A DNA stretch of 64,000 nucleotides from Clostridiales bacterium. Lineage in GTDB: Bacteria; Bacillota; Clostridia; TANB77; CAG-508. The DNA lies in assembly GCA_003525075.1 (NCBI GenBank), contig DQFO01000014.1, positions 64,032 to 128,031 of the forward strand. Reading direction: 5' to 3'. Position numbers and translations under genes: made by a program. Under the pieces are notes generated by a model. It was given only the letters and a program-made list of their open reading frames with translations, had not been told where the DNA came from and did not search any database. Positions 10,161-45,802 of this stretch are shown here, one piece after another; the stretch's first letter is position 1; each line of letters starts with the position of its first letter.

Positions 10161-11138
10161 GTATCTGTATTTTAAATATGAAATTATTGGAAAGTGAAAC
10201 AATGCAATTTCTCTTATCATTTTCTTTCCTTGATTTTTTCCTGACAAAATTTTGAAATAGTCTCCTATATTTTTAATATTTATTTTCTTTGTTTTATATA
10301 TTTCATTATAATAATTTATTGCTTTTTGGCAAAATTCTAAATCTATTTTTTTATTTGCATATTGTTCACACATCTTTATTCCACCATCATATGCCCTTTT
10401 TATAGCATCTTCTCTGTATTTTAAGAATGCATCATAACTATTACCATTCTTCTCTTTCCATCTATTCAAATTTTGATTTAAACTTCGTCCTCCAAAAACA
10501 TTTGAATTATGTAATCTATAATCAAATAATTCTTCTTTTATATAGTCTATTCCCTTTCCTTCATTTGCAATAAAAGCTGCTAACCAATCATGTGCAATTA
10601 CTTTAGATTTAAATGGTATCATCTTTTCTTTAACTGATTTAGTTATTATTTGAGAACATCCAATCCCAACACATCTTGATATTGCCAATTTGTCATTCCC
10701 TTTTACTAATGGTACATTTTTATATTTGAAATAGTTGTCTCTTAGCACAATTCCATCTTCATCTATTTGCCTACAATTGCAATAAACCATATCAACATCT
10801 TTGTCTTTTAATAATTTTAGGCTTTTTTCTACTTTATCTTTATGCCAAACATCGTCATGATCTGAAAACATTATATAATTTGCTGTAGATTGTTGTAACA
10901 AAAATTCAAAATTTTTATTATATCCTAAATTTTGAGGTTGCAAAAATAATCTTATTCGATTATCATTTTTTTCATACTCTTCTAGTAATTCCTTTATTTC
11001 ATTTTTATTTGAATTGTCATCACTTATATATATTTTTATATTTTTATATGTTTGTCTTAATATACTTTCAATTTGTTTTTTTAGATATTTTTCATTTGTA
11101 TTATATGTTGTAACTAATATATCTACTACTTCGTCCAT
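10158..11138 (-). CDS. family 2 glycosyltransferase (rhamnosyltransferase-like), paralog of 7770-8756
   Basis: 326 aa. VDILVTTYNTNEKYLKKQIESILRQTYKNIKIYISDDNS and SDHDDVWHKDKVEK are present. Confidence 0.75.
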   Translation of the reverse strand: MDEVVDILVTTYNTNEKYLKKQIESILRQTYKNIKIYISDDNSNKNEIKELLEEYEKNDNRIRLFLQPQNLGYNKNFEFLLQQSTANYIMFSDHDDVWHKDKVEKSLKLLKDKDVDMVYCNCRQIDEDGIVLRDNYFKYKNVPLVKGNDKLAISRCVGIGCSQIITKSVKEKMIPFKSKVIAHDWLAAFIANEGKGIDYIKEELFDYRLHNSNVFGGRSLNQNLNRWKEKNGNSYDAFLKYREDAIKRAYDGGIKMCEQYANKKIDLEFCQKAINYYNEIYKTKKINIKNIGDYFKILSGKNQGKKMIREIALFHFPIISYLKYRY

Positions 11139-11213
11139 TTTCCGCTCCCTTTTTTTATTTAATTGAATTTTAGCATATCTATTTTATAAAGTCAAATTCA
11201 TTTTACATAAACA

Positions 11214-11242
11214 TTGACATTTTTTTCTAATTATACTATAAT
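11214..11242 (+). promoter_or_regulatory. perfect sigma70/sigmaA consensus promoter: TTGACA, 17-nt spacer, TATAAT
   Basis: ttgaca at 11214-11219, a 17-nt spacer, then tataat at 11237-11242. The AAGGAGGG Shine-Dalgarno is at 11285-11292, 6 nt before the ATG at 11299. Confidence 0.6.
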
Positions 11243-11298
11243 AATAATATAGGCTGATTTGCCTATTATAATTTTGTGGCCTACAAGGAGGGCTAATT

Positions 11299-11607
11299 AT
11301 GAGCATTTTTGAGAATGACGGAAACTACTACGCCAACTATTCTGTCCCTGCAATTTCTTTTTGCAACAGAAAAGCATCATCTGCCGAGTTCCGCAAATAC
11401 CTGGCCGAACATCCTTCTGTACAGGAAGATGTTCCGTCCTCTATTATGGAAGAACTCCAGAAGATGCCCAGCGCCAAACCCGCTGGTGCTGCCTACTATG
11501 CAACCCTGAACACTCAGCTGTTCACCAAGTTCTGCAAAGATGTGGCAACGGCGATGGTAGAGAAGTCTCGCGATCCTCAGTGTGTTATGGTCTTCTCTGG
11601 AAACTAA
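11299..11607 (+). CDS. small protein of unknown function encoded by a compositionally foreign (GC-rich) ORF
   Basis: 102 aa. The ORF is about 50% GC in a roughly 25% GC genome. Codons such as ctg, gcc, ccc, cgc and ccg are ones the host almost never uses. It is on the plus strand among minus-strand genes, with a strong SD and an intrinsic terminator immediately downstream. I do not recognise a family. Confidence 0.6.
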   Translation: MSIFENDGNYYANYSVPAISFCNRKASSAEFRKYLAEHPSVQEDVPSSIMEELQKMPSAKPAGAAYYATLNTQLFTKFCKDVATAMVEKSRDPQCVMVFSGN

Positions 11608-11635
11608 AATAGATTTTATATTTTAGTTTTTCACA

Positions 11636-11676
11636 AAAGCCCGCAGATGAAAAAAATCATCTGCGGGCTTTTTATA
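11636..11676. terminator. bidirectional rho-independent terminator (GC-rich 15-bp stem flanked by A and T runs)
   Basis: aaaagcccgcagatga aaaaaa tcatctgcgggcttttt. It serves the plus-strand foreign ORF and the minus-strand recO. Confidence 0.75.
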
Positions 11677-12381
11677 TTATCTTTCTAATTTATCATCAAA
11701 ATATAATTTTGAAACAAGTTTTAATTCATTTAAAGATTCATCTTTTAAAGAAAATGAAAATAATTTTTTTGCTGGAGCCATAACAATATATCTAATCGCT
11801 GATACTGTACTTTCAGATATTGAAATTGCCCCTTTATCTAATCTTCCACAATTTTCACATTTAAAGCCATCATTTTTTAGACTAAAATACTTCAAATTAT
11901 TTTTTTCTTTACAATTTACACATTCCATAATTCTTGGTGTAAAACCAAGAAAGCATAATAATTTTAACTTAAATGTACTTATAACTAAATCTATATTTTT
12001 ATCTGTCTCTGATAAAGTATATAACGTATTTAATAACATTTGTAATATTTTATAACAATTTTCATTTTCATCAGTTACATCTCTTACAATTTTTGTAATC
12101 TCTATTGCATAATTAAGTTTATCTAAATCTGTTCTCAAATTATAAAAAACTTCAATAGTATCACAAGAATTTATATTATATGTATTTGACCCTTTATACA
12201 TCATATACTCTCCAAAACAAAATAACTGTGTTCCAGCTAGCAAGGCGCTTCTCGGACGCCTCGCCCCTTTAGCAACACACGATATCTTGCCTAATCCTGG
12301 AGTTAACATTGTAAGCATTTTGTCATAATCTCCTAAATTGCTTTCAGAGATTATTATCCCACTTGTTTTTATTGTCCCCAT
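11677..12381 (-). CDS. recO: DNA repair protein RecO
   Basis: 234 aa. AKGARRPRSALL is the RecO GARR motif. A C-terminal CxxC...CxxC zinc finger is present (CVNCKEKN...CENCGR). Position matches era-yqzL-recO synteny. Confidence 0.85.
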   Translation of the reverse strand: MGTIKTSGIIISESNLGDYDKMLTMLTPGLGKISCVAKGARRPRSALLAGTQLFCFGEYMMYKGSNTYNINSCDTIEVFYNLRTDLDKLNYAIEITKIVRDVTDENENCYKILQMLLNTLYTLSETDKNIDLVISTFKLKLLCFLGFTPRIMECVNCKEKNNLKYFSLKNDGFKCENCGRLDKGAISISESTVSAIRYIVMAPAKKLFSFSLKDESLNELKLVSKLYFDDKLER

Positions 12382-12511
12382 ATTTTTCCGCCTTTTGTTC
12401 CATATTATTATTTTGCAATTGTTCTTCTATTCCTTGAAATTGTTTTAATTCTAAAAATGTATTAACATCTCCTGTATTTTTAAATGTGTCCCATGCAATT
12501 TTTTTAATCAT
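12344..12511 (-). CDS. yqzL: YqzL-family small protein (not in the ORF track because it is under 60 aa)
   Basis: 56 aa: MIKKIAWDTFKNTGDVNTFLELKQFQGIEEQLQNNNMEQKAEKYGDNKNKWDNNL. The N-terminus matches the Bacillus YqzL pattern (FTWKLFSETGHIDTYLL). SD ggaagtgag lies 6 nt upstream. The 3' end overlaps the recO start, as in Bacillus. Confidence 0.65.
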   Translation of the reverse strand: MIKKIAWDTFKNTGDVNTFLELKQFQGIEEQLQNNNMEQKAEKYGDNKNKWDNNL

Positions 12512-26189: not shown

Positions 26190-26699
26190 TTATTTATTAA
26201 GATTATTCTTAATATTTTCAATGCTTTCATTTAATTTGGATGTACAATATGGACACCTATCTGCTTTTATATTAATTTTATTATAACAATGTGGACAAAT
26301 CTTTGTATCTTCTGCTTTTTTCTCTTCTTGTTTTTCTCCTATTTTTGCAATTTTATTCATAACTTTTACAAGTATAAATATTACAAATGCCATTATCAAA
26401 AAGTTTATTATATCTGTTAAAAATGCTCCATATGTTAGTTTTAATTTTCCAATTTCTAATACCCATTCTGAAAAATTTACTCCTCCAAAACATCCTAAAA
26501 TTGGAGAAATAATATTATTTGTAAATGATGTTACAACACTTTGAAATGCACTTCCTATCAATACACCTACTGCTAAGTCTAAAACATTTCCTCTAAGTGC
26601 GAATTCTTTAAATTCCTTAAAAAACTTTCCTTGTTTTTTCTTTGCTTTTTCTATCGCATCTTTTGCTTCTTTTATTTTTTCTTCATTTTCTTTTTTCAT
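26190..26699 (-). CDS. mscL: large-conductance mechanosensitive channel MscL with C-terminal zinc-ribbon extension
   Basis: 169 aa. ALRGNVLDLAVGVLIGSAFQSVV is the MscL TM1 signature. The C-terminus has CPHCYNKINIKADRCPYC (CxxC-N10-CxxC). Confidence 0.85.
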   Translation of the reverse strand: MKKENEEKIKEAKDAIEKAKKKQGKFFKEFKEFALRGNVLDLAVGVLIGSAFQSVVTSFTNNIISPILGCFGGVNFSEWVLEIGKLKLTYGAFLTDIINFLIMAFVIFILVKVMNKIAKIGEKQEEKKAEDTKICPHCYNKINIKADRCPYCTSKLNESIENIKNNLNK

Positions 26700-26790
26700 T
26701 ATAATATACCTTCTTCCGCTGTTATTATATTACATTTTTATTTACATATCAATATAAAAGTGATATTATATTTTTGAAGGAGATTTTTAT

Positions 26791-27675
26791 ATGATAGATT
26801 TACATATGCATACAACTTATTCAGATGGCACTGAAAGTTGTAGTACAGTTTTAAAAAAATGCCAAGAAAAAAACTTAAATTTTATTTCAATAACAGATCA
26901 TAATACTGCTTTAGTATATGAAGAGTTAGAAGATCAAAGTATTTCTTCACTTTTTAATGGTCATATTATTTCAGGAATAGAGCTTAATACAAAAGCTTTA
27001 AATATTCCTATAGAAATTCTTGGATATGGTATTGATTACAAAAAAATGAATGAACTTGTAAAAAATGTGTATATTCCCGCTGAAGAAAGAAATAAAATCG
27101 AAGTAAAAAGATTATATGATAAATGTATTAATGCTGGAATTGTCCTAGATAAGAACTGTCTGGAAAACTACTCACCAGATATGTTTGCCTCAACATTTTT
27201 CCATAAAGAAATAACAAAACATGCGGAAAATAAAAAAATATTATCTGAAGAAGCTTGGAATTCTAGTAAAATCTTTTATAGACAATATATGTCTGATCCA
27301 AAAACAAAATTATATGTTGAAATGGATGATTTTGTACCAGACTTTGAAACTGCTAGTAATTTAGTTAGAGAAGCTGGTGGTTTAGTATTTATTCCTCATA
27401 TTTATGAATACAAGAAAAATTCAGAACCTATACTAGAACATATTCTTAAAAATTATAAAATTGATGGTATTGAATGTTATTATACAACATTTACTGAAGA
27501 ACAACATAAAAGATTATTAAATCTTTGTAAAGAACGTAATTTATTTGTTTCAGGTGGTAGTGACTTCCATGGTACTATAAAACCAGATGTAGATATTGGT
27601 GTTGGATATGGAAATATGCAAATTCCTGATGAAATTTTAAATTCTTGGAAAAATAAAATTAAATTTTTCAAATAA
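26791..27675 (+). CDS. PHP-domain metal-dependent phosphoesterase
   Basis: 294 aa. MIDLHMHTTYSDGT is the PHP motif I, and there are further His/Asp motifs (ITDHNT, FIPH, GGSDFHG). A host-like promoter TTTACA-17-TATTAT lies at 26746-26774. Confidence 0.8.
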   Translation: MIDLHMHTTYSDGTESCSTVLKKCQEKNLNFISITDHNTALVYEELEDQSISSLFNGHIISGIELNTKALNIPIEILGYGIDYKKMNELVKNVYIPAEERNKIEVKRLYDKCINAGIVLDKNCLENYSPDMFASTFFHKEITKHAENKKILSEEAWNSSKIFYRQYMSDPKTKLYVEMDDFVPDFETASNLVREAGGLVFIPHIYEYKKNSEPILEHILKNYKIDGIECYYTTFTEEQHKRLLNLCKERNLFVSGGSDFHGTIKPDVDIGVGYGNMQIPDEILNSWKNKIKFFK

Positions 27676-27678
27676 AAT

Positions 27679-27707
27679 TTGACACATTTCGATTTTTGGT
27701 ATATAAT
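27679..27707 (+). promoter_or_regulatory. perfect sigma70/sigmaA consensus promoter: TTGACA, 17-nt spacer, TATAAT
   Basis: ttgaca at 27679-27684, a 17-nt spacer, tataat at 27702-27707. It begins 3 nt after the PHP gene stop. A roughly 75-nt leader follows, then SD ggagg at 27768-27772 and the ATG at 27784. Confidence 0.6.
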
Positions 27708-27783
27708 TAATATATTAACCCATTGTATGGATTTGCTATTCAAAAATCGGATAGTAAAAAACAATTTATGGAGGTATGGCACT

Positions 27784-28416
27784 ATGACTACTCGTTGGAT
27801 TGCTGTTACTGGCTTGGACGGAAGTGGCAAAACCACTTTGGTCGACAATCTCGTTAAATTTCTCGAATCTAAGGGATTCAAGGTTTACCGGGATCGTTTC
27901 CCCCACGATAAGTATTTGACCAAGACTCTCTTGAATGAGAGCAAGGATGCTTATACTGATCGTCTGCTCTTTGCACTGGATAATCGCATCGCGGGTACTC
28001 ACCTGCGTGGCATCATTGAGACTGGTGAATATGATTTCATAGTTACTCAGCGTTGTTTCCTGGACAGTTTTGTCCATGGTGCAGTTCAGGGCTATTCCTA
28101 TTCTTGGGTGTCTGAACTCAATCATGTCAGAGATCTTCCCAAGTGTGACATTATGGTCCACATGGTCGCAGAAGCCCGCATCGCGTATGCGCGCATTTGC
28201 AATGATCCTGATGCTGATAAGTTCGAATATCCTGAATACATCGGCAAACAAGAGCAAGAAACCCGGCGGGCATATGTTGAAGTTGAAGCGCATAACAATC
28301 CTGCACTCATCCACTTTAACACTTGCCAAAACATCTACATGGACACCACTCAGATGTCCACTGATGAGGTCTTCGAAACGGTAAGCTCTAAGCTCGTTAA
28401 GATGCTCAACCTCTAA
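27784..28416 (+). CDS. P-loop nucleoside/nucleotide kinase-like protein (deoxynucleoside kinase / thymidylate kinase superfamily) encoded by a compositionally foreign GC-rich ORF
   Basis: 211 aa from the ATG at 27784. The ORF-track TTG start at 27679 lies inside the promoter and is spurious. Walker A is IAVTGLDGSGKTT. VTQRCFLDSF resembles the dNK ERS...DR-F motif, and the Arg-rich EARIAYARICNDPDADKFE is LID-like. The ORF is about 50% GC with ctg/gcc/ggc/cgc codons, and a terminator follows 5 nt after the stop. Confidence 0.6.
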   Translation: MTTRWIAVTGLDGSGKTTLVDNLVKFLESKGFKVYRDRFPHDKYLTKTLLNESKDAYTDRLLFALDNRIAGTHLRGIIETGEYDFIVTQRCFLDSFVHGAVQGYSYSWVSELNHVRDLPKCDIMVHMVAEARIAYARICNDPDADKFEYPEYIGKQEQETRRAYVEVEAHNNPALIHFNTCQNIYMDTTQMSTDEVFETVSSKLVKMLNL

Positions 28417-28420
28417 AAAA

Positions 28421-28462
28421 TAAAGCCCAAGTAGCGTATACGTTACTTGGGCTTTATTTTAT
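28421..28462. terminator. rho-independent terminator (GC-rich stem with one G-U wobble) shared by the convergent foreign kinase ORF and the GGDEF gene
   Basis: aaataaagcccaagtagcgta tacgttacttgggctttatttt. Confidence 0.7.
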
Positions 28463-28469
28463 TAAAATC

Positions 28470-29396
28470 TTATTCATGTCTTCTATCAACTGCATAACTA
28501 CTTCCAATAATAGATTTTGCAACATGTTTTACTTGTGCTCCTATTTCACCTATTTCCAATATATTGGCAAATCTATCCTTATCTGCAATTACAGCTCCTA
28601 TAGAAATTGATGTTAAAGAAAATTGTTCTATAATTCCTTTTCTATTTGCAACCTCTATATATCCTTTTTCTAGATCCTCTTCAGTAAAGAATTTTGTTAC
28701 CCCTTCATCAAAGTTAGCAATTATTAATTGGCATATATTATCAACATCTAATGTTGGAACGATTGCTATAAAATCATCTCCACCTATATGCCCTATAAAA
28801 TAATTTTCCTTAAAACTTTGATGAATACATTTTAAAATTGTATCTGCTGTATATTCAATTATTTGATCTCCTTTTAAAAATCCATATACATCATTATATG
28901 CTTTAAAATTATCCAAATCTAAATATAAAACTGAAAATTCCTCTTTATTTGTAATTCTTTTCTTCAATTCTGCATGAATTTGTACATTTCCTGGTAAACC
29001 TGTTAATGGACTTATTCTTCTATTCATTTTCAATAATCTATCTAAGTTTTTTATTGTATAATACAAATATTCTGTATCAACTGGTTTTTTTATATAATAT
29101 TCAACTGATTGTTCTAAAACTTCTAATTTATGATATTTATCAGTATTTGATGACACAACAATTATTGGTGTTATTTGATTATCTTCATCTGTTCTTATCT
29201 GTTTACATAGGCCTGTAATATCTCTATCTATTGAATCTTCATTTATAATTATCAAAAAAGGTATATTTTTTAATGTTATATCTATTTGTTCAGTTTTTAC
29301 TCCAATAAATTTGAACTCTTTATCATTTCTAAATAATTCTTTAAAAATCGGAATAGATGATTCATCATCATCTATTACATATATATCTTGTGCCAT
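28470..29396 (-). CDS. response regulator with receiver domain and GGDEF-type domain carrying a non-canonical GGDDF motif
   Basis: 308 aa. The N-terminal receiver is MAQDIYVIDDDESS.... The C-terminal GGDEF fold has ...RISPLTGLPGN... and IGHIGGDDFIAIVP. Confidence 0.75.
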   Translation of the reverse strand: MAQDIYVIDDDESSIPIFKELFRNDKEFKFIGVKTEQIDITLKNIPFLIIINEDSIDRDITGLCKQIRTDEDNQITPIIVVSSNTDKYHKLEVLEQSVEYYIKKPVDTEYLYYTIKNLDRLLKMNRRISPLTGLPGNVQIHAELKKRITNKEEFSVLYLDLDNFKAYNDVYGFLKGDQIIEYTADTILKCIHQSFKENYFIGHIGGDDFIAIVPTLDVDNICQLIIANFDEGVTKFFTEEDLEKGYIEVANRKGIIEQFSLTSISIGAVIADKDRFANILEIGEIGAQVKHVAKSIIGSSYAVDRRHE

Positions 29397-43331: not shown

Positions 43332-44426
43332 ATGGAAAATACTAAAATTGGAAATAAAGAAGCAATTGCCCTTTTAACAACAATCTCATTTAATCAAATA
43401 ATTATATTTGGAGTAAAATCTATAATAAACAATACTTCATCTGCTTCTTTACTTAATCTACTATATTTAAGTATTATTATATTAATTTTCACAATTTTAA
43501 TATGTTATTTATTAAATAAATTTCCATCATTTGATTTACTTGATATATCTGATTATCTTGGTGGAAAAATATTAAAATGGATTATTGGAATTTTATTTTT
43601 TATATATTTTATTATTTTTGCAGGGAATTCACTTCATCTGTTTTCTTCATGTTTAGAAATAATATATTTTCCTTTAACTCTACTGATTTTTATAAGATCA
43701 TTTTTAATAATAGGTGCTACTATTACTTGCTTATTCAAAAATAATGCGTTATATAGAAGCAATTTTATTGTTTTTCCTTTAATTATAATTACTACTATTT
43801 TTATGTTTTTCTCTGATATGAAATATTTTAACATTGAAAATGTATACCCTATATTTGGAGATAGTCTCTTTTACACTTTTATTGTTGGATTAAATAATAT
43901 GATTGTATTTCAAAGTTTAGCATATATTTTTTTCTTGCCACCATTATTAAAAAATACTCAAAACATAAAAAAAATTGCAATAACATCTATTGTAATATCT
44001 TGTATTTTAAACTTATTATGTGTTGCAACAGTTCTTTTTACATTTGATGGTTTTACAGAAATAGATGAATTACTACCTTTATATTCAGCAGTAAAGCATA
44101 TAGAATATGGTGAATTTTTTAGAAAAATGGATTCTATATTTTTTCTAATTTGGATTATTAGTTTTGTAAGTTACTTAAGTTTAACACTAAAATTTTCAGC
44201 AAATATTTTAAAAAAATTAACATATTCAAAATCCAACTTTTTCTTTATATTTATTTCTGCATTTCTATTATTTATAACATCTGGATGGCAGAAAAATTAT
44301 AATACATCTTTGATGTTTACTGAAAATTTTTTAAGTTATTTCTTTTTTATATTAGTATTCGTAATTGCTATTTTAGTTTTACTATTAGCATTTATAAAAA
44401 AGAAAATTAAAAGGTGGTCAAAATGA
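43332..44426 (+). CDS. spore germination protein, GerAB/GerKB-type (APC-superfamily permease subunit of a germinant receptor)
   Basis: 364 aa with about 10 TM helices and the Spore_permease-like layout. It is followed, with overlap, by a Ger(x)C lipoprotein gene. Confidence 0.75.
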   Translation: MENTKIGNKEAIALLTTISFNQIIIFGVKSIINNTSSASLLNLLYLSIIILIFTILICYLLNKFPSFDLLDISDYLGGKILKWIIGILFFIYFIIFAGNSLHLFSSCLEIIYFPLTLLIFIRSFLIIGATITCLFKNNALYRSNFIVFPLIIITTIFMFFSDMKYFNIENVYPIFGDSLFYTFIVGLNNMIVFQSLAYIFFLPPLLKNTQNIKKIAITSIVISCILNLLCVATVLFTFDGFTEIDELLPLYSAVKHIEYGEFFRKMDSIFFLIWIISFVSYLSLTLKFSANILKKLTYSKSNFFFIFISAFLLFITSGWQKNYNTSLMFTENFLSYFFFILVFVIAILVLLLAFIKKKIKRWSK

Positions 44427-45802
44427 AGAAAAAATTTATAATTATTTTAATATTATTTGTTGTCTTTATTACATTTATTGCAGGATTTTCCAATTCATAC
44501 ATCTCTCGTCGTATAGAACATCTTGCATATGTTCTTGTGCTTGGAATTGATAAAGGTGAAAAAGCAAGATTAAAAATTTCTATTCAATTTATAAATGTTT
44601 CTTCTTCATCAAGTGGTGCATCTTCTGATTCTTCGCAAATTGTATTAACATCTTGCGAAGCTAATTCTATGTTTAGTGGATTAAACCTTTTAAATAGTTA
44701 TATAGGTAAAGAAATTAATCTTGCACATTGTAGTGTTGTCGTTTTTTCAGAAGAAATTGCCAAAGAAGGAATTTCATCAGAGATATATAGTTTAATAAAT
44801 AATGAAGAAATTCGTTCTTCTGCTAATATTGTTGTTGCAAATTGTAAAGCATATGATTATATTAATAATAGTAAACCTAATTTAGAAAATCTAACAAGTA
44901 AATATTTCGATACATTTGATATTACAAGTAAACTAACTGGATATTTTTCAAATATAACACTTGGTGATTTTTTTAATAATCTATCTGAAAGCAATTCAGA
45001 CCCAATAGCAGTTTTAGGCGGATTAAATTCAACAGCACGTTCTGAAGAAGATAAATCATCTTCAAATTCTTCTGAAGAAAGTTCTTCATCTTCAAATTCT
45101 TCTGAAGAAAGTTCTTCATCTTCAAATAGTGGCAATTCAGACAATATAAATGGTGAAACCTCAAATTCTAATTCATCATCACAAGATATTGAAGATCAAG
45201 AGAAACAAGAAATTGAAACTACTCAAAATAATTTAGTTGCTGGAAAAAGTTCAATTGTTGGTGGAAGAGGTACAGAAAACCTTGGTCTTGCTATTTTTTC
45301 TGGTGATAAATATATTGGAGAATTAACTGTTTGGGAATCAATTTGTCATTCTCTTATCACAAATTCTATTGATACCTGTATAATATCTGTTGAAGATCCT
45401 TTAGTTGAAAATAAACAATTAGAAATTCAACTTTCTCCTAATAAAAAATCAAAAATAACATCTAATATCGAAAATGGAGCTATAAATATAAATATTGAAC
45501 TAAATTTAATTGCTAATATAATTTCATTAAATTCAAATATAAACTATGAAGATACAGATACTATAAATAAGATATCCACAGCTACTCAAAATCGTTTAAA
45601 TGACGAATTAAATAAATATTTTGATAAAACAGCAAGAAAGTATAATGTTGATATTGATAAATATTATTTAAGTATTCTAAAATATTTTCCTTATCAAAAA
45701 AACTTTGATAATTTTAATTATAAAGAAAAATTAAAAAATGCCAACTTTAATTGTAATACACATGTGAACATCATTTCTTCATTACTTATAACCAAAACAT
45801 AA
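44414..45802 (+). CDS. germination protein Ger(x)C family (lipoprotein) with an inserted Ser-rich low-complexity region
   Basis: 462 aa. Signal/TM is followed by AYVLVLGIDKGEKARLKISIQF, a Ger(x)C N-domain signature. The insert SSNSSEESSSSSNSSEESSSSSNSGNS is encoded by a tandem DNA repeat. Confidence 0.75.
   Translation: MVKMKKKFIIILILFVVFITFIAGFSNSYISRRIEHLAYVLVLGIDKGEKARLKISIQFINVSSSSSGASSDSSQIVLTSCEANSMFSGLNLLNSYIGKEINLAHCSVVVFSEEIAKEGISSEIYSLINNEEIRSSANIVVANCKAYDYINNSKPNLENLTSKYFDTFDITSKLTGYFSNITLGDFFNNLSESNSDPIAVLGGLNSTARSEEDKSSSNSSEESSSSSNSSEESSSSSNSGNSDNINGETSNSNSSSQDIEDQEKQEIETTQNNLVAGKSSIVGGRGTENLGLAIFSGDKYIGELTVWESICHSLITNSIDTCIISVEDPLVENKQLEIQLSPNKKSKITSNIENGAININIELNLIANIISLNSNINYEDTDTINKISTATQNRLNDELNKYFDKTARKYNVDIDKYYLSILKYFPYQKNFDNFNYKEKLKNANFNCNTHVNIISSLLITKT
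45041..45132 (+). repeat. tandem direct repeat (30-nt unit x2 plus partial copies) within the gerC-like gene
   Basis: The unit ttcaaattcttctgaagaaagttcttcatc occurs at 45061-45090 and 45091-45120, with partial copies on both sides. Confidence 0.85.

Follow-up and report, generated by a model that had tools for sequence, protein, structure and literature searches.

The DNA analysed here is a 64,000-nt stretch (the window) of contig DQFO01000014.1 from the Clostridiales bacterium assembly GCA_003525075.1. Its subject is a GC-rich gene for a P-loop kinase, which lies with its own promoter and terminator between two host genes, one for a PHP-domain phosphoesterase and one, convergent, for a GGDEF protein. 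We conclude with high confidence that this kinase gene is native, conserved throughout its clade, independently transcribed and a partner of the PHP phosphoesterase. The GC-rich, A-poor coding sequence (CDS) appears, with moderate confidence, to be kept by selection and not to be un-ameliorated foreign DNA; we are less confident that what is selected is a highly paired, stable and abundant mRNA. The full reading, i.e. a native unit in which selection on the transcript, and not history, maintains the composition, has in our judgement an even chance of being right. An earlier note on this DNA, made from the sequence alone, had taken the gene (cassette 2) for an imported or engineered element that plausibly arrived together with a second GC-rich unit of the window (cassette 1).

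A GC-rich transcription unit in an AT-rich window

The host sequence has a GC content of 26%, and the GC content at third codon positions (GC3) is 0.07-0.18 in host open reading frames (ORFs) vs 0.49-0.52 in the kinase ORF. Only two ORFs of the window are outliers in GC3, namely the kinase gene and the 102-aa ORF of cassette 1. Measured per 100 nt, the GC content of the kinase ORF amounts to 0.43-0.50 and that of the flanks to 0.20-0.33; the switch takes place exactly at the kinase start codon, the leader being still AT-rich. The compositional discontinuity reported in the earlier note is therefore real and quantifiable, although the ORF has 46% GC rather than about 50% and encodes 210 rather than 211 amino acids.

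The -35 hexamer TTGACA (27679-27684) begins 3 nt past the stop codon of the PHP gene (27673-27675) and is followed by the -10 hexamer TATAAT (27702-27707), a 12/12 match to the consensus. This exact pattern is present twice in the window, both times at the GC-rich cassettes (chance expectation 0.07), and none of 100 shuffled windows had at least two exact matches. At the other end of the gene, the hairpin at 28417-28460 has a predicted folding energy (dG) of -29.1 kcal/mol (z -9.1) on the plus strand and of -24.3 kcal/mol (z -8.2) on the minus strand. As it is stable on both strands, it is predicted to be a bidirectional terminator common to the kinase and the convergent GGDEF genes. A simple terminator scan skipped it, presumably because its T-run falls below the 5-T rule of that scan. 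Promoter, spacer, GGAGG, ATG and the peptide motifs GLDGSGKT (Walker A) and VTQRCFLDSF are all present in the sequence at the coordinates at which they had been read before, so that every element of an autonomous unit of promoter, Shine-Dalgarno (SD) site, ORF and terminator is in place, with the terminator serving the GGDEF gene too. The design is indeed common to both cassettes, each of which possesses the exact promoter, an SD site, an ORF and a hairpin.

Conservation of the gene and its neighbourhood

A 245-aa form of the kinase starting with TTG, an artefact whose frame runs across the promoter, represents a protein cluster with 451 members (from Logan, ENA and NCBI assemblies), and contigs carrying the cluster protein have the PHP gene upstream and the GGDEF gene downstream, as in the window. 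A metagenome scan found 28 near-identical copies in independent human-gut assemblies. Neighbouring proteins are annotated in NCBI metagenome-assembled genomes (MAGs) as 'Clostridium sp.' or 'Clostridiales bacterium'. Relatives of the kinase with 60-92% identity are numerous; the two that were looked up (67-69% identical) are both encoded directly downstream of a PHP gene in related genomes with ~29% GC.

In a scan of 185,579 species genomes (one genome per species), the kinase family was found in ~35 species of AT-rich uncultured Clostridia (including 'Clostridium sp. 26_21' and 'CAG:343') at 44-91% identity, and all homologs with more than 44% identity belong to AT-rich Clostridia MAGs. Remoter homologs are present in Bacilli (42-44%) and in Actinobacteria, Mycobacterium spp., Planctomycetota and others (32-39%). 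A PHP gene adjoins the kinase gene in 35/35 clade loci with a readable neighbourhood. The two genes are mostly arranged in tandem, with the PHP gene convergent in loci L035, L041, L042 and L045 and divergent in L043 and L044. Furthermore, pairwise protein distances of PHP and kinase are correlated (r = 0.71, 630 pairs). No presence/absence polymorphism of the kinase gene was seen in the ~35 sampled species, whose loci were recovered through the kinase itself, genomes lacking the gene not having been searched for. In literature searches, neither the pairing of this kinase with PHP nor comparably persistent GC-rich genes turned up.

The expression signals are conserved as well. Nearly all orthologs have a promoter matching 11-12 of 12 consensus positions upstream, commonly TTGACATAA...TATAAT, whereas only 13% of ordinary genes with an upstream region of their own score at least 11/12. 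In about 25 of the 35 orthologs, the leader measures ~70 nt and contains a hairpin of 8-14 bp whose position is constant and whose stem sequence varies (mean z of leader folding across orthologs -2.0), and the changes in this hairpin between the window and L013 preserve the pairs. The hairpin is missing from one subclade, in which the leaders measure 36-46 nt. In L043 and L044, the two most divergent clade members with a divergent PHP gene, the leader has 108-114 nt, and the kinase ORF carries an in-frame N-terminal extension or is preceded by an upstream ORF (L043:9932-9988, L044:9881-9988). Start codons of the orthologs are preceded by GGAGG-like sites. Terminator hairpins follow the orthologs, and their sequences are unrelated to each other.

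Codon pattern and composition across the clade

The codon shift of the kinase gene is mainly an avoidance of A-ending codons. The frequency of A at third codon positions (A3) is 0.12 in the kinase gene vs 0.40 in the PHP gene, and that of T (T3) stays at 0.38. The codons TTA, CTA, TCA, ACA and CCA are completely absent and ATA is nearly so. AGA makes up 8% of the arginine codons in the kinase gene vs 82% in the PHP gene, and AAA 25% vs 86% of the lysine codons. The amino acid composition is shifted too, with more Ala and Arg and fewer Ile, Lys and Asn than in PHP. The C-ending two-fold codons resemble those of highly expressed host genes. However, the kinase gene leans on CTC, CTG, CGC, CGG, GGC, GTC and ACC, all unused in the host genes for EF-Tu, EF-G and S7, and translational optimisation was rejected as an explanation for that reason.

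The same deviation is found in every clade genome, where GC3 of the kinase ortholog is 0.21-0.58 and the median of the flanking ORFs 0.09-0.22; within the 20-kb locus, GC content usually peaks at the ortholog. The homologs in Bacilli match their hosts (GC3 0.13-0.19 vs 0.13-0.15), and those in Actinobacteria and Planctomycetota do likewise. At four-fold degenerate sites of conserved residues, the identity of the window to the other species, the closest excepted, is 0.22-0.44, the expectation from composition being 0.20-0.31. In the decay model used here, a host equilibrium GC3 of ~0.1 implies that GC-to-AT changes are ~9 times as frequent as AT-to-GC changes, and the GC excess relaxes at ~2 times the number of substitutions per site between S (G or C) and W (A or T). 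The nucleotide divergence of 13% between the window and L012/L013 would then cost about a quarter of the GC excess, and saturated divergence all of it. Since the four-fold sites are saturated and GC3 nevertheless stays above that of the host, the excess does not appear to be leftover history. The spread of GC3 points to lineage-specific balances instead of a shared decay, because all tips of the tree are equally old.

Predicted folding of the coding sequence

All 36 ortholog CDSs fold below their synonymous-codon shuffles (z -1.5 to -8.5, mean -4.83), vs a mean z of -0.59 for the neighbouring PHP genes of the same genomes (paired Wilcoxon p = 2e-10). The excess also holds under shuffles within blocks of 35 codons, in which only 12-15% of the bases are changed; regional GC heterogeneity was rejected as its source on these grounds. 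With dinucleotide shuffles, the kinase CDS of the window has z -3.3. The excess is absent in the homologs from Bacilli, Actinobacteria and Planctomycetota (z +0.8 to -1.2).

Consensus energies of six subclades, compared with column shuffles that preserve codon position, gave z -2.3, -2.8, -1.5, -2.8, -4.2 and -3.8 for the kinase gene vs -0.7, -1.1, -1.5, +2.1, -0.2 and +1.3 for PHP. Small recurrent hairpins are predicted within the kinase CDS at 28061-28085, 28230-28253 and 28340-28360. The conserved trait is a folding property and not one defined fold.

Proposed selection on the transcript

According to the reading that we favour, the kinase gene is a vertically inherited single-gene transcription unit in a very AT-rich clade of human-gut Clostridia and probably started as an old acquisition by the clade ancestor from a GC-richer donor. 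Afterwards, its composition would have been actively maintained via selection on the transcript. This selection would keep the sigma-A promoter of maximal strength, the hairpin in the 5' untranslated region (5'UTR) and the strong ribosome-binding site, and likewise the A-poor, internally paired CDS and the perfect terminator hairpin. The purpose would be an abundant, nuclease-resistant and long-lived mRNA among the A/U-rich, unstructured mRNAs of the host. A stable and abundant mRNA is suggested because promoter, 5' hairpin, SD site, paired CDS and 3' hairpin all point in this direction, and because A is the base whose removal most raises the pairing potential.

Several observations weigh against selection on the transcript. 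The orthologs of L036 (GC3 0.21) and L026 (0.24) are near host composition, so that any selection must be variable or lost in places. Stationarity of GC3 is argued and not measured, since substitutions could not be polarised with saturated outgroups and with strain data in which recombination acts as a confounder. For the clade as a whole, no consensus RNA structure was detected, RNAalifold on the 36 orthologs giving 3 pairs and 0 compensatory changes. In the window itself the contrast is modest, with dinucleotide-shuffle z of -3.3 for the kinase gene and -2.0 for PHP, and codon shuffles give z values of -1.5 to -3.4 for other host genes of the window genome. Folding of the antisense strand is almost equally stable (z -2.9), and the signal is therefore not assignable to RNA rather than DNA. 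All these folding energies are predictions.

Polarisation of single-nucleotide polymorphisms in 30 strain-level loci gave 10 W>S vs 12 S>W changes in the kinase gene; this result is not relied on, as the flanks showed implausible W>S excesses stemming from deep recombinant haplotypes and outgroup homoplasy. A three-taxon test was uninformative, L012 and L013 being nearly identical in the kinase gene.

Other explanations of the GC-rich coding sequence

The strongest competitor, unlikely as it seems to us, is an ancient horizontal acquisition followed by slow, incomplete and neutral amelioration, with promoter and terminator being ordinary. The 'GC-rich' amino acid composition fits this explanation, as do the remoter homologs in high-GC Actinobacteria and Planctomycetota; furthermore, GC3 varies from 0.21 to 0.58 and nears that of the host in some lineages, as decay predicts, and cassette 1 has the expected one-sided S/W differences between close relatives. 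However, GC3 is still 2-5 times that of the host when four-fold sites are saturated clade-wide, and the most AT-rich hosts hold some of the most GC-rich copies. With equally old tips, the observed spread would need very unequal mutation rates. Moreover, depletion of A3 with T3 kept is no generic donor signature, and neutral decay predicts neither the folding excess nor a strictly kept 12/12 promoter.

Selection could instead act on the codons themselves, an explanation that we regard as improbable. Codons read by minor tRNAs (CTC/CTG, CGN, AAG, NNC) would uncouple the kinase from the tRNA pool for A/U-ending codons, for use during amino acid starvation or tRNA-targeting stress; in a variant, they would slow translation, which the strong promoter would offset. 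In line with this, the gene uses codons that highly expressed host genes never use, nearly lacks TTA, AGA, ACA, CCA and ATA, and shifts exactly at the start codon after an AT-rich leader; the maximal promoter and SD site could compensate for poor codons. Selection on codons does not predict excess pairing relative to shuffles with the same codons, though, and gives no reason for the loss of A-ending codons when T-ending ones persist.

A long shot is that xenologous gene conversion has replaced the gene in place again and again, drawing on an unsampled pool of higher GC content and so refreshing the GC-richness. The locus is in fact a recombination mosaic between close species: between window positions 27800 and 30600, the identity to the closest species, L012, falls from 96-99% to ~70-90% and then returns to 97-100%. 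As this drop spans the kinase gene, the GGDEF gene and the next gene, it is a recombination block in which the kinase gene behaves like its neighbours, and a raised substitution rate specific to the kinase gene was rejected. L012 also carries an extra ~780 bp between mscL and the PHP gene (about window 26600-26800). Other GC-rich, patchy ORFs with consensus promoters in the clade genomes would suit such a pool too. Against it stand the confinement of homologs with more than 44% identity to AT-rich Clostridia MAGs among all species genomes scanned, the lack of viral or plasmid copies, and a divergence of the kinase that tracks that of PHP. The IMG/VR scan gave no relatives of the kinase; in INPHARED phages a nucleotide search gave no match and a protein search only remote canonical tmk genes (22-29% identity), and PLSDB plasmids likewise contained only remote canonical tmk genes.

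A recent import or an engineered cassette forming one system with cassette 1, e.g. a phage-derived anti-defence or nucleotide-metabolism module as proposed in the earlier note, is effectively excluded, because orthologs occupy the same locus across the clade. What had suggested it is the textbook promoter, SD site and terminator with the same design in cassette 1, the restriction of the exact promoter to the two cassettes within the window, and the fact that both terminators begin with AAAGCCC and end with GGGCTTT. These terminator ends are indeed present in both cassettes but are no mark of common origin, because the terminators of the orthologs have unrelated sequences. Host-like orthologs stand in the same place in 35 related genomes, in synteny with PHP and diverging together with it, and the cassette is found in many independent natural metagenomes. 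The relationship to kinases of phages and mobile elements could not be upheld given the database results above, and PADLOC-DB gave no significant match (best PDC-M51B, E 2.5e-5, 22 bits, partial; others to the P-loop only). Nor did the two cassettes arrive together: the kinase gene is clade-wide, whereas the ORFan of cassette 1 has a wholly different, very narrow distribution, confined to very close relatives.

Least credible of all, and also effectively excluded, is a second function on the other strand as the cause of GC-richness: the 187-aa antisense ORF (27766-28329) is long in the window and its frame is free of stops in 11/36 orthologs, but the other 25 have up to 16 stops in it, so that it is not a conserved gene, and being open only where the sense codons TTA, CTA and TCA are missing, it is best explained as a by-product of avoiding A-ending codons. 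The five alternatives have been given in order of decreasing likelihood.

The kinase protein and its phosphatase partners

The kinase matches PF02223 with 35.6 bits (cut-off 27, E 9.6e-9, residues 10-166). Its scores for TIGR00041, the dTMP kinase equivalog (49.1 bits), and NF005923 (38 bits) are below the respective cut-offs of 83.25 and 193. Of the 'dNK/Tmk-like' assignment in the earlier note, the Tmk part is supported by PF02223 and by the structural model, and the dNK part is not: PF01712 gave 18 bits, below its cut-off of 27, and covers only the P-loop region (residues 6-55). The AlphaFold2 model has a pLDDT of 91.6, and all 50 matches listed in a Foldseek search against the PDB are Tmk proteins (TM 0.63-0.76, 17-24% identity; the top ones TM 0.70-0.76).

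Within the family (mean column identity 71%), GLDGSGKT, R38, F63, R68, Q89-R90, H98-G99 and DPDADKFEY are invariant; the P-loop GLDGSGKT (residues 10-17) is invariant in 27 family members. The P-loop is without Arg. The segment homologous to the Tmk LID had been described as Arg-rich but is in fact the acidic NDPDADKFEY; judged by alignment alone, the acidic DPDADKFEY within it is invariant, and R137 and K146 are the only basic residues close to this stretch. By sequence and predicted structure, the protein is thus a Tmk-fold kinase for which dTMP is not established as a substrate, and it defines an uncharacterised thymidylate-kinase-like subfamily.

The genomic coupling of the kinase to PHP implies that the two proteins are probably coupled functionally as well. 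The PHP protein has weak NCBIfam matches, far under the cut-offs, to RNase RNM and 3',5'-nucleoside bisphosphate phosphatase. In eight actinobacterial loci, the kinase homolog is directly followed by a gene for an NT5C-type 5'-deoxynucleotidase, which is not homologous to PHP. As two unrelated phosphatases (PHP and NT5C) pair with one kinase family, the arrangement suggests that kinase and phosphatase work as a couple on a (deoxy)nucleoside phosphate.

Cassette 1 and other GC-rich ORFs

The codon bias of cassette 1 is similar to that of the kinase gene. Its protein has no Pfam, NCBIfam, PADLOC or PHROG family match and only 5 homologous clusters, all at least 68% identical, and the low pLDDT (56) of its structure model precluded a fold search. 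In close relatives, synteny is kept, with GT2 and recO on either side of the gene. Compared with L075, promoter, leader and terminator are ~99% identical, including a compensatory G-C to A-T change in the terminator stem, and the ORF is ~89% identical, with differences that are mostly S in the window and W in L075. This pattern fits a younger acquisition that would be decaying in one lineage. The neighbouring recO gene, on the minus strand and otherwise AT-rich, has a short patch with 43-47% GC (window 12173-12398), e.g. GCTAGCAAGGCGCTTCTCGGACGCCTCGCCCC.

Related genomes contain further ORFs with elevated GC (GC3 0.35-0.60 vs about 0.1-0.2), most of which, where tested, fold better than their synonymous shuffles; one of them encodes a HIT-like protein of ~338 aa and is divergent from PHP. 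Among such other GC-rich ORFs, 10/29 have an 11-12/12 promoter, vs 13% of ordinary genes. GC-elevated ORFs with consensus promoters may thus represent a wider gene class. A GC-rich region (~45-52%) of another kind is L027:13733-14402, which encodes tandem Pro/Lys/Thr-rich peptide repeats (…KGPTPTQKGTDPNTKRDRPQ…).

We put forward, as a tentative possibility, that AT-rich gut Clostridia keep a small class of 'hard-wired' genes whose GC-rich, A-poor and heavily base-paired CDSs are held against the mutational bias, over spans of family-level evolution, by strong selection on synonymous sites, and which also have perfect consensus promoters, 5' hairpins and perfect terminators. If true, these genes would represent an undescribed gene-specific strategy of mRNA stabilisation or insulation; the Tmk-like kinase would be its conserved flagship, and cassette 1 and the other GC-rich ORFs with 12/12 promoters would be further members.

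Features of the locus

The coordinates of the features are compiled in Table 1. Nearly all host genes of the window are on the minus strand, and GC skew is negative throughout; plus-strand genes are limited to PHP, the kinase gene, cassette 1 and two genes at 43332-45802. Both strongly promoted cassettes therefore face against the prevailing gene direction and hence probably against the direction of replication. Rfam gave no match anywhere in the window, and there is no tRNA gene within it.

Table 1. Features of the window and of loci in related genomes (L numbers).
Feature	Position	Strand	Evidence or remark
PHP-domain phosphoesterase gene (294 aa)	26791-27675	+	PF02811, E 5.9e-9; host-like composition, GC3 0.115
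Sigma-A/sigma-70 promoter TTGACA-N17-TATAAT, 12/12 consensus	27679-27707	+	Sequence; pattern scan
Kinase leader, ~70 nt	about 27714-27783	+	Sequence
5'UTR hairpin, 10-bp stem and 7-nt loop	27732-27758	+	Predicted fold
Shine-Dalgarno site GGAGG	27770-27774	+	9 nt ahead of ATG at 27784
Kinase CDS (210 aa), Tmk-fold P-loop kinase	27784-28416	+	46% GC, GC3 0.52
Antisense ORF (187 aa)	27766-28329	-	Stop-free frame opposite the kinase CDS
Bidirectional intrinsic terminator, perfect 20-bp stem between A-run and T-run	28417-28460	both	Predicted fold
GGDEF gene, convergent to the kinase gene	28470-29396	-	
Cassette 1	11214-11674	+	Promoter, SD, ORF and terminator, design as in cassette 2
Cassette 1, exact consensus promoter	11214-11242	+	12/12 match
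Cassette 1, ORFan (102 aa)	11299-11607	+	GC3 0.53; AAGGAGG ahead
Cassette 1, terminator hairpin, perfect	11635-11674	+	Predicted fold
Kinase homolog and NT5C-type gene	L050-L056, L058, about 10600-11500		Actinobacterial genomes including Mycobacterium spp.
Further GC-elevated ORFs	L008:3872-4891, L017:7866-8879, L014:1805-2089, L027:3191-3475		
Further GC-elevated ORFs	L035:12358-12744, L041:4131-4769, L037:12327-12890		

Significance

When an atypical GC content meets a clean promoter and terminator, recent transfer or engineering is the routine interpretation. The kinase gene is a counter-example: it has been in place and diverging with its neighbour clade-wide, yet it has not drifted to host composition. 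Should selection on the transcript prove responsible, the clade would provide a natural experiment with ~35 replicates on selection on synonymous sites and mRNA folding under extreme AT bias. Furthermore, the pairings with PHP in Clostridia and with NT5C in Actinobacteria point to an unstudied kinase/phosphatase couple in nucleotide metabolism, which is found in abundant but uncultured human-gut bacteria.

Comparison with known systems

The kinase resembles thymidylate kinase (PF02223; TIGR00041; PDB 2pbr, 4s2e, 2ccg, 3hjn) in its P-loop GLDGSGKT and overall fold. The kinase family has also kept the phosphate-binding arginines and the stacking Phe of Tmk: the Arg aligned with that of 'REP', the Phe in 'LLF', the Arg that follows this Phe and the Arg of D-R-Y are all invariant. 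It differs in being only ~20% identical to Tmk and under the NCBIfam equivalog cut-off. The Asp of D-R-Y/H is replaced by an invariant Gln (TQR[G/C]F), although the Arg is kept; a His-Gly stands for the Tyr-Gln-Gly stretch, and in place of an Arg-rich LID there is an acidic one (DPDADKFEY). The usual genomic context of tmk is tmk-holB, whereas a phosphatase gene invariably accompanies the kinase gene.

Phage 'morons' and similar autonomous cassettes also have their own promoter, ORF and terminator and a sharp break in composition between two host genes. The kinase cassette, however, lies outside any prophage, has no phage relatives and shows no presence/absence polymorphism in the sampled loci, which were recovered through the kinase. 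The description fits cassette 1, a narrowly distributed ORFan, better than it fits the kinase cassette.

In the model of Lawrence and Ochman, horizontally acquired genes ameliorate toward host composition. The kinase gene is like such genes in its atypical GC content and codon usage and in having remoter homologs in high-GC phyla. Unlike them, its atypia outlasts synonymous saturation and family-level divergence and comes with a non-random codon pattern and an excess of predicted mRNA folding.

Gram-positive bacteria are known to stabilise mRNAs by 5' stem-loops (e.g., in the aprE and ermC leaders) and by 3' terminator hairpins, and structure in coding sequences has been linked to functional mRNA half-life. 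The kinase unit is predicted to join all of these features, namely a 5'UTR hairpin, a strong SD site, a highly paired CDS and a perfect 3' hairpin. The difference is that here a whole CDS appears to be recoded against an extreme AT mutational bias, and clade-wide.

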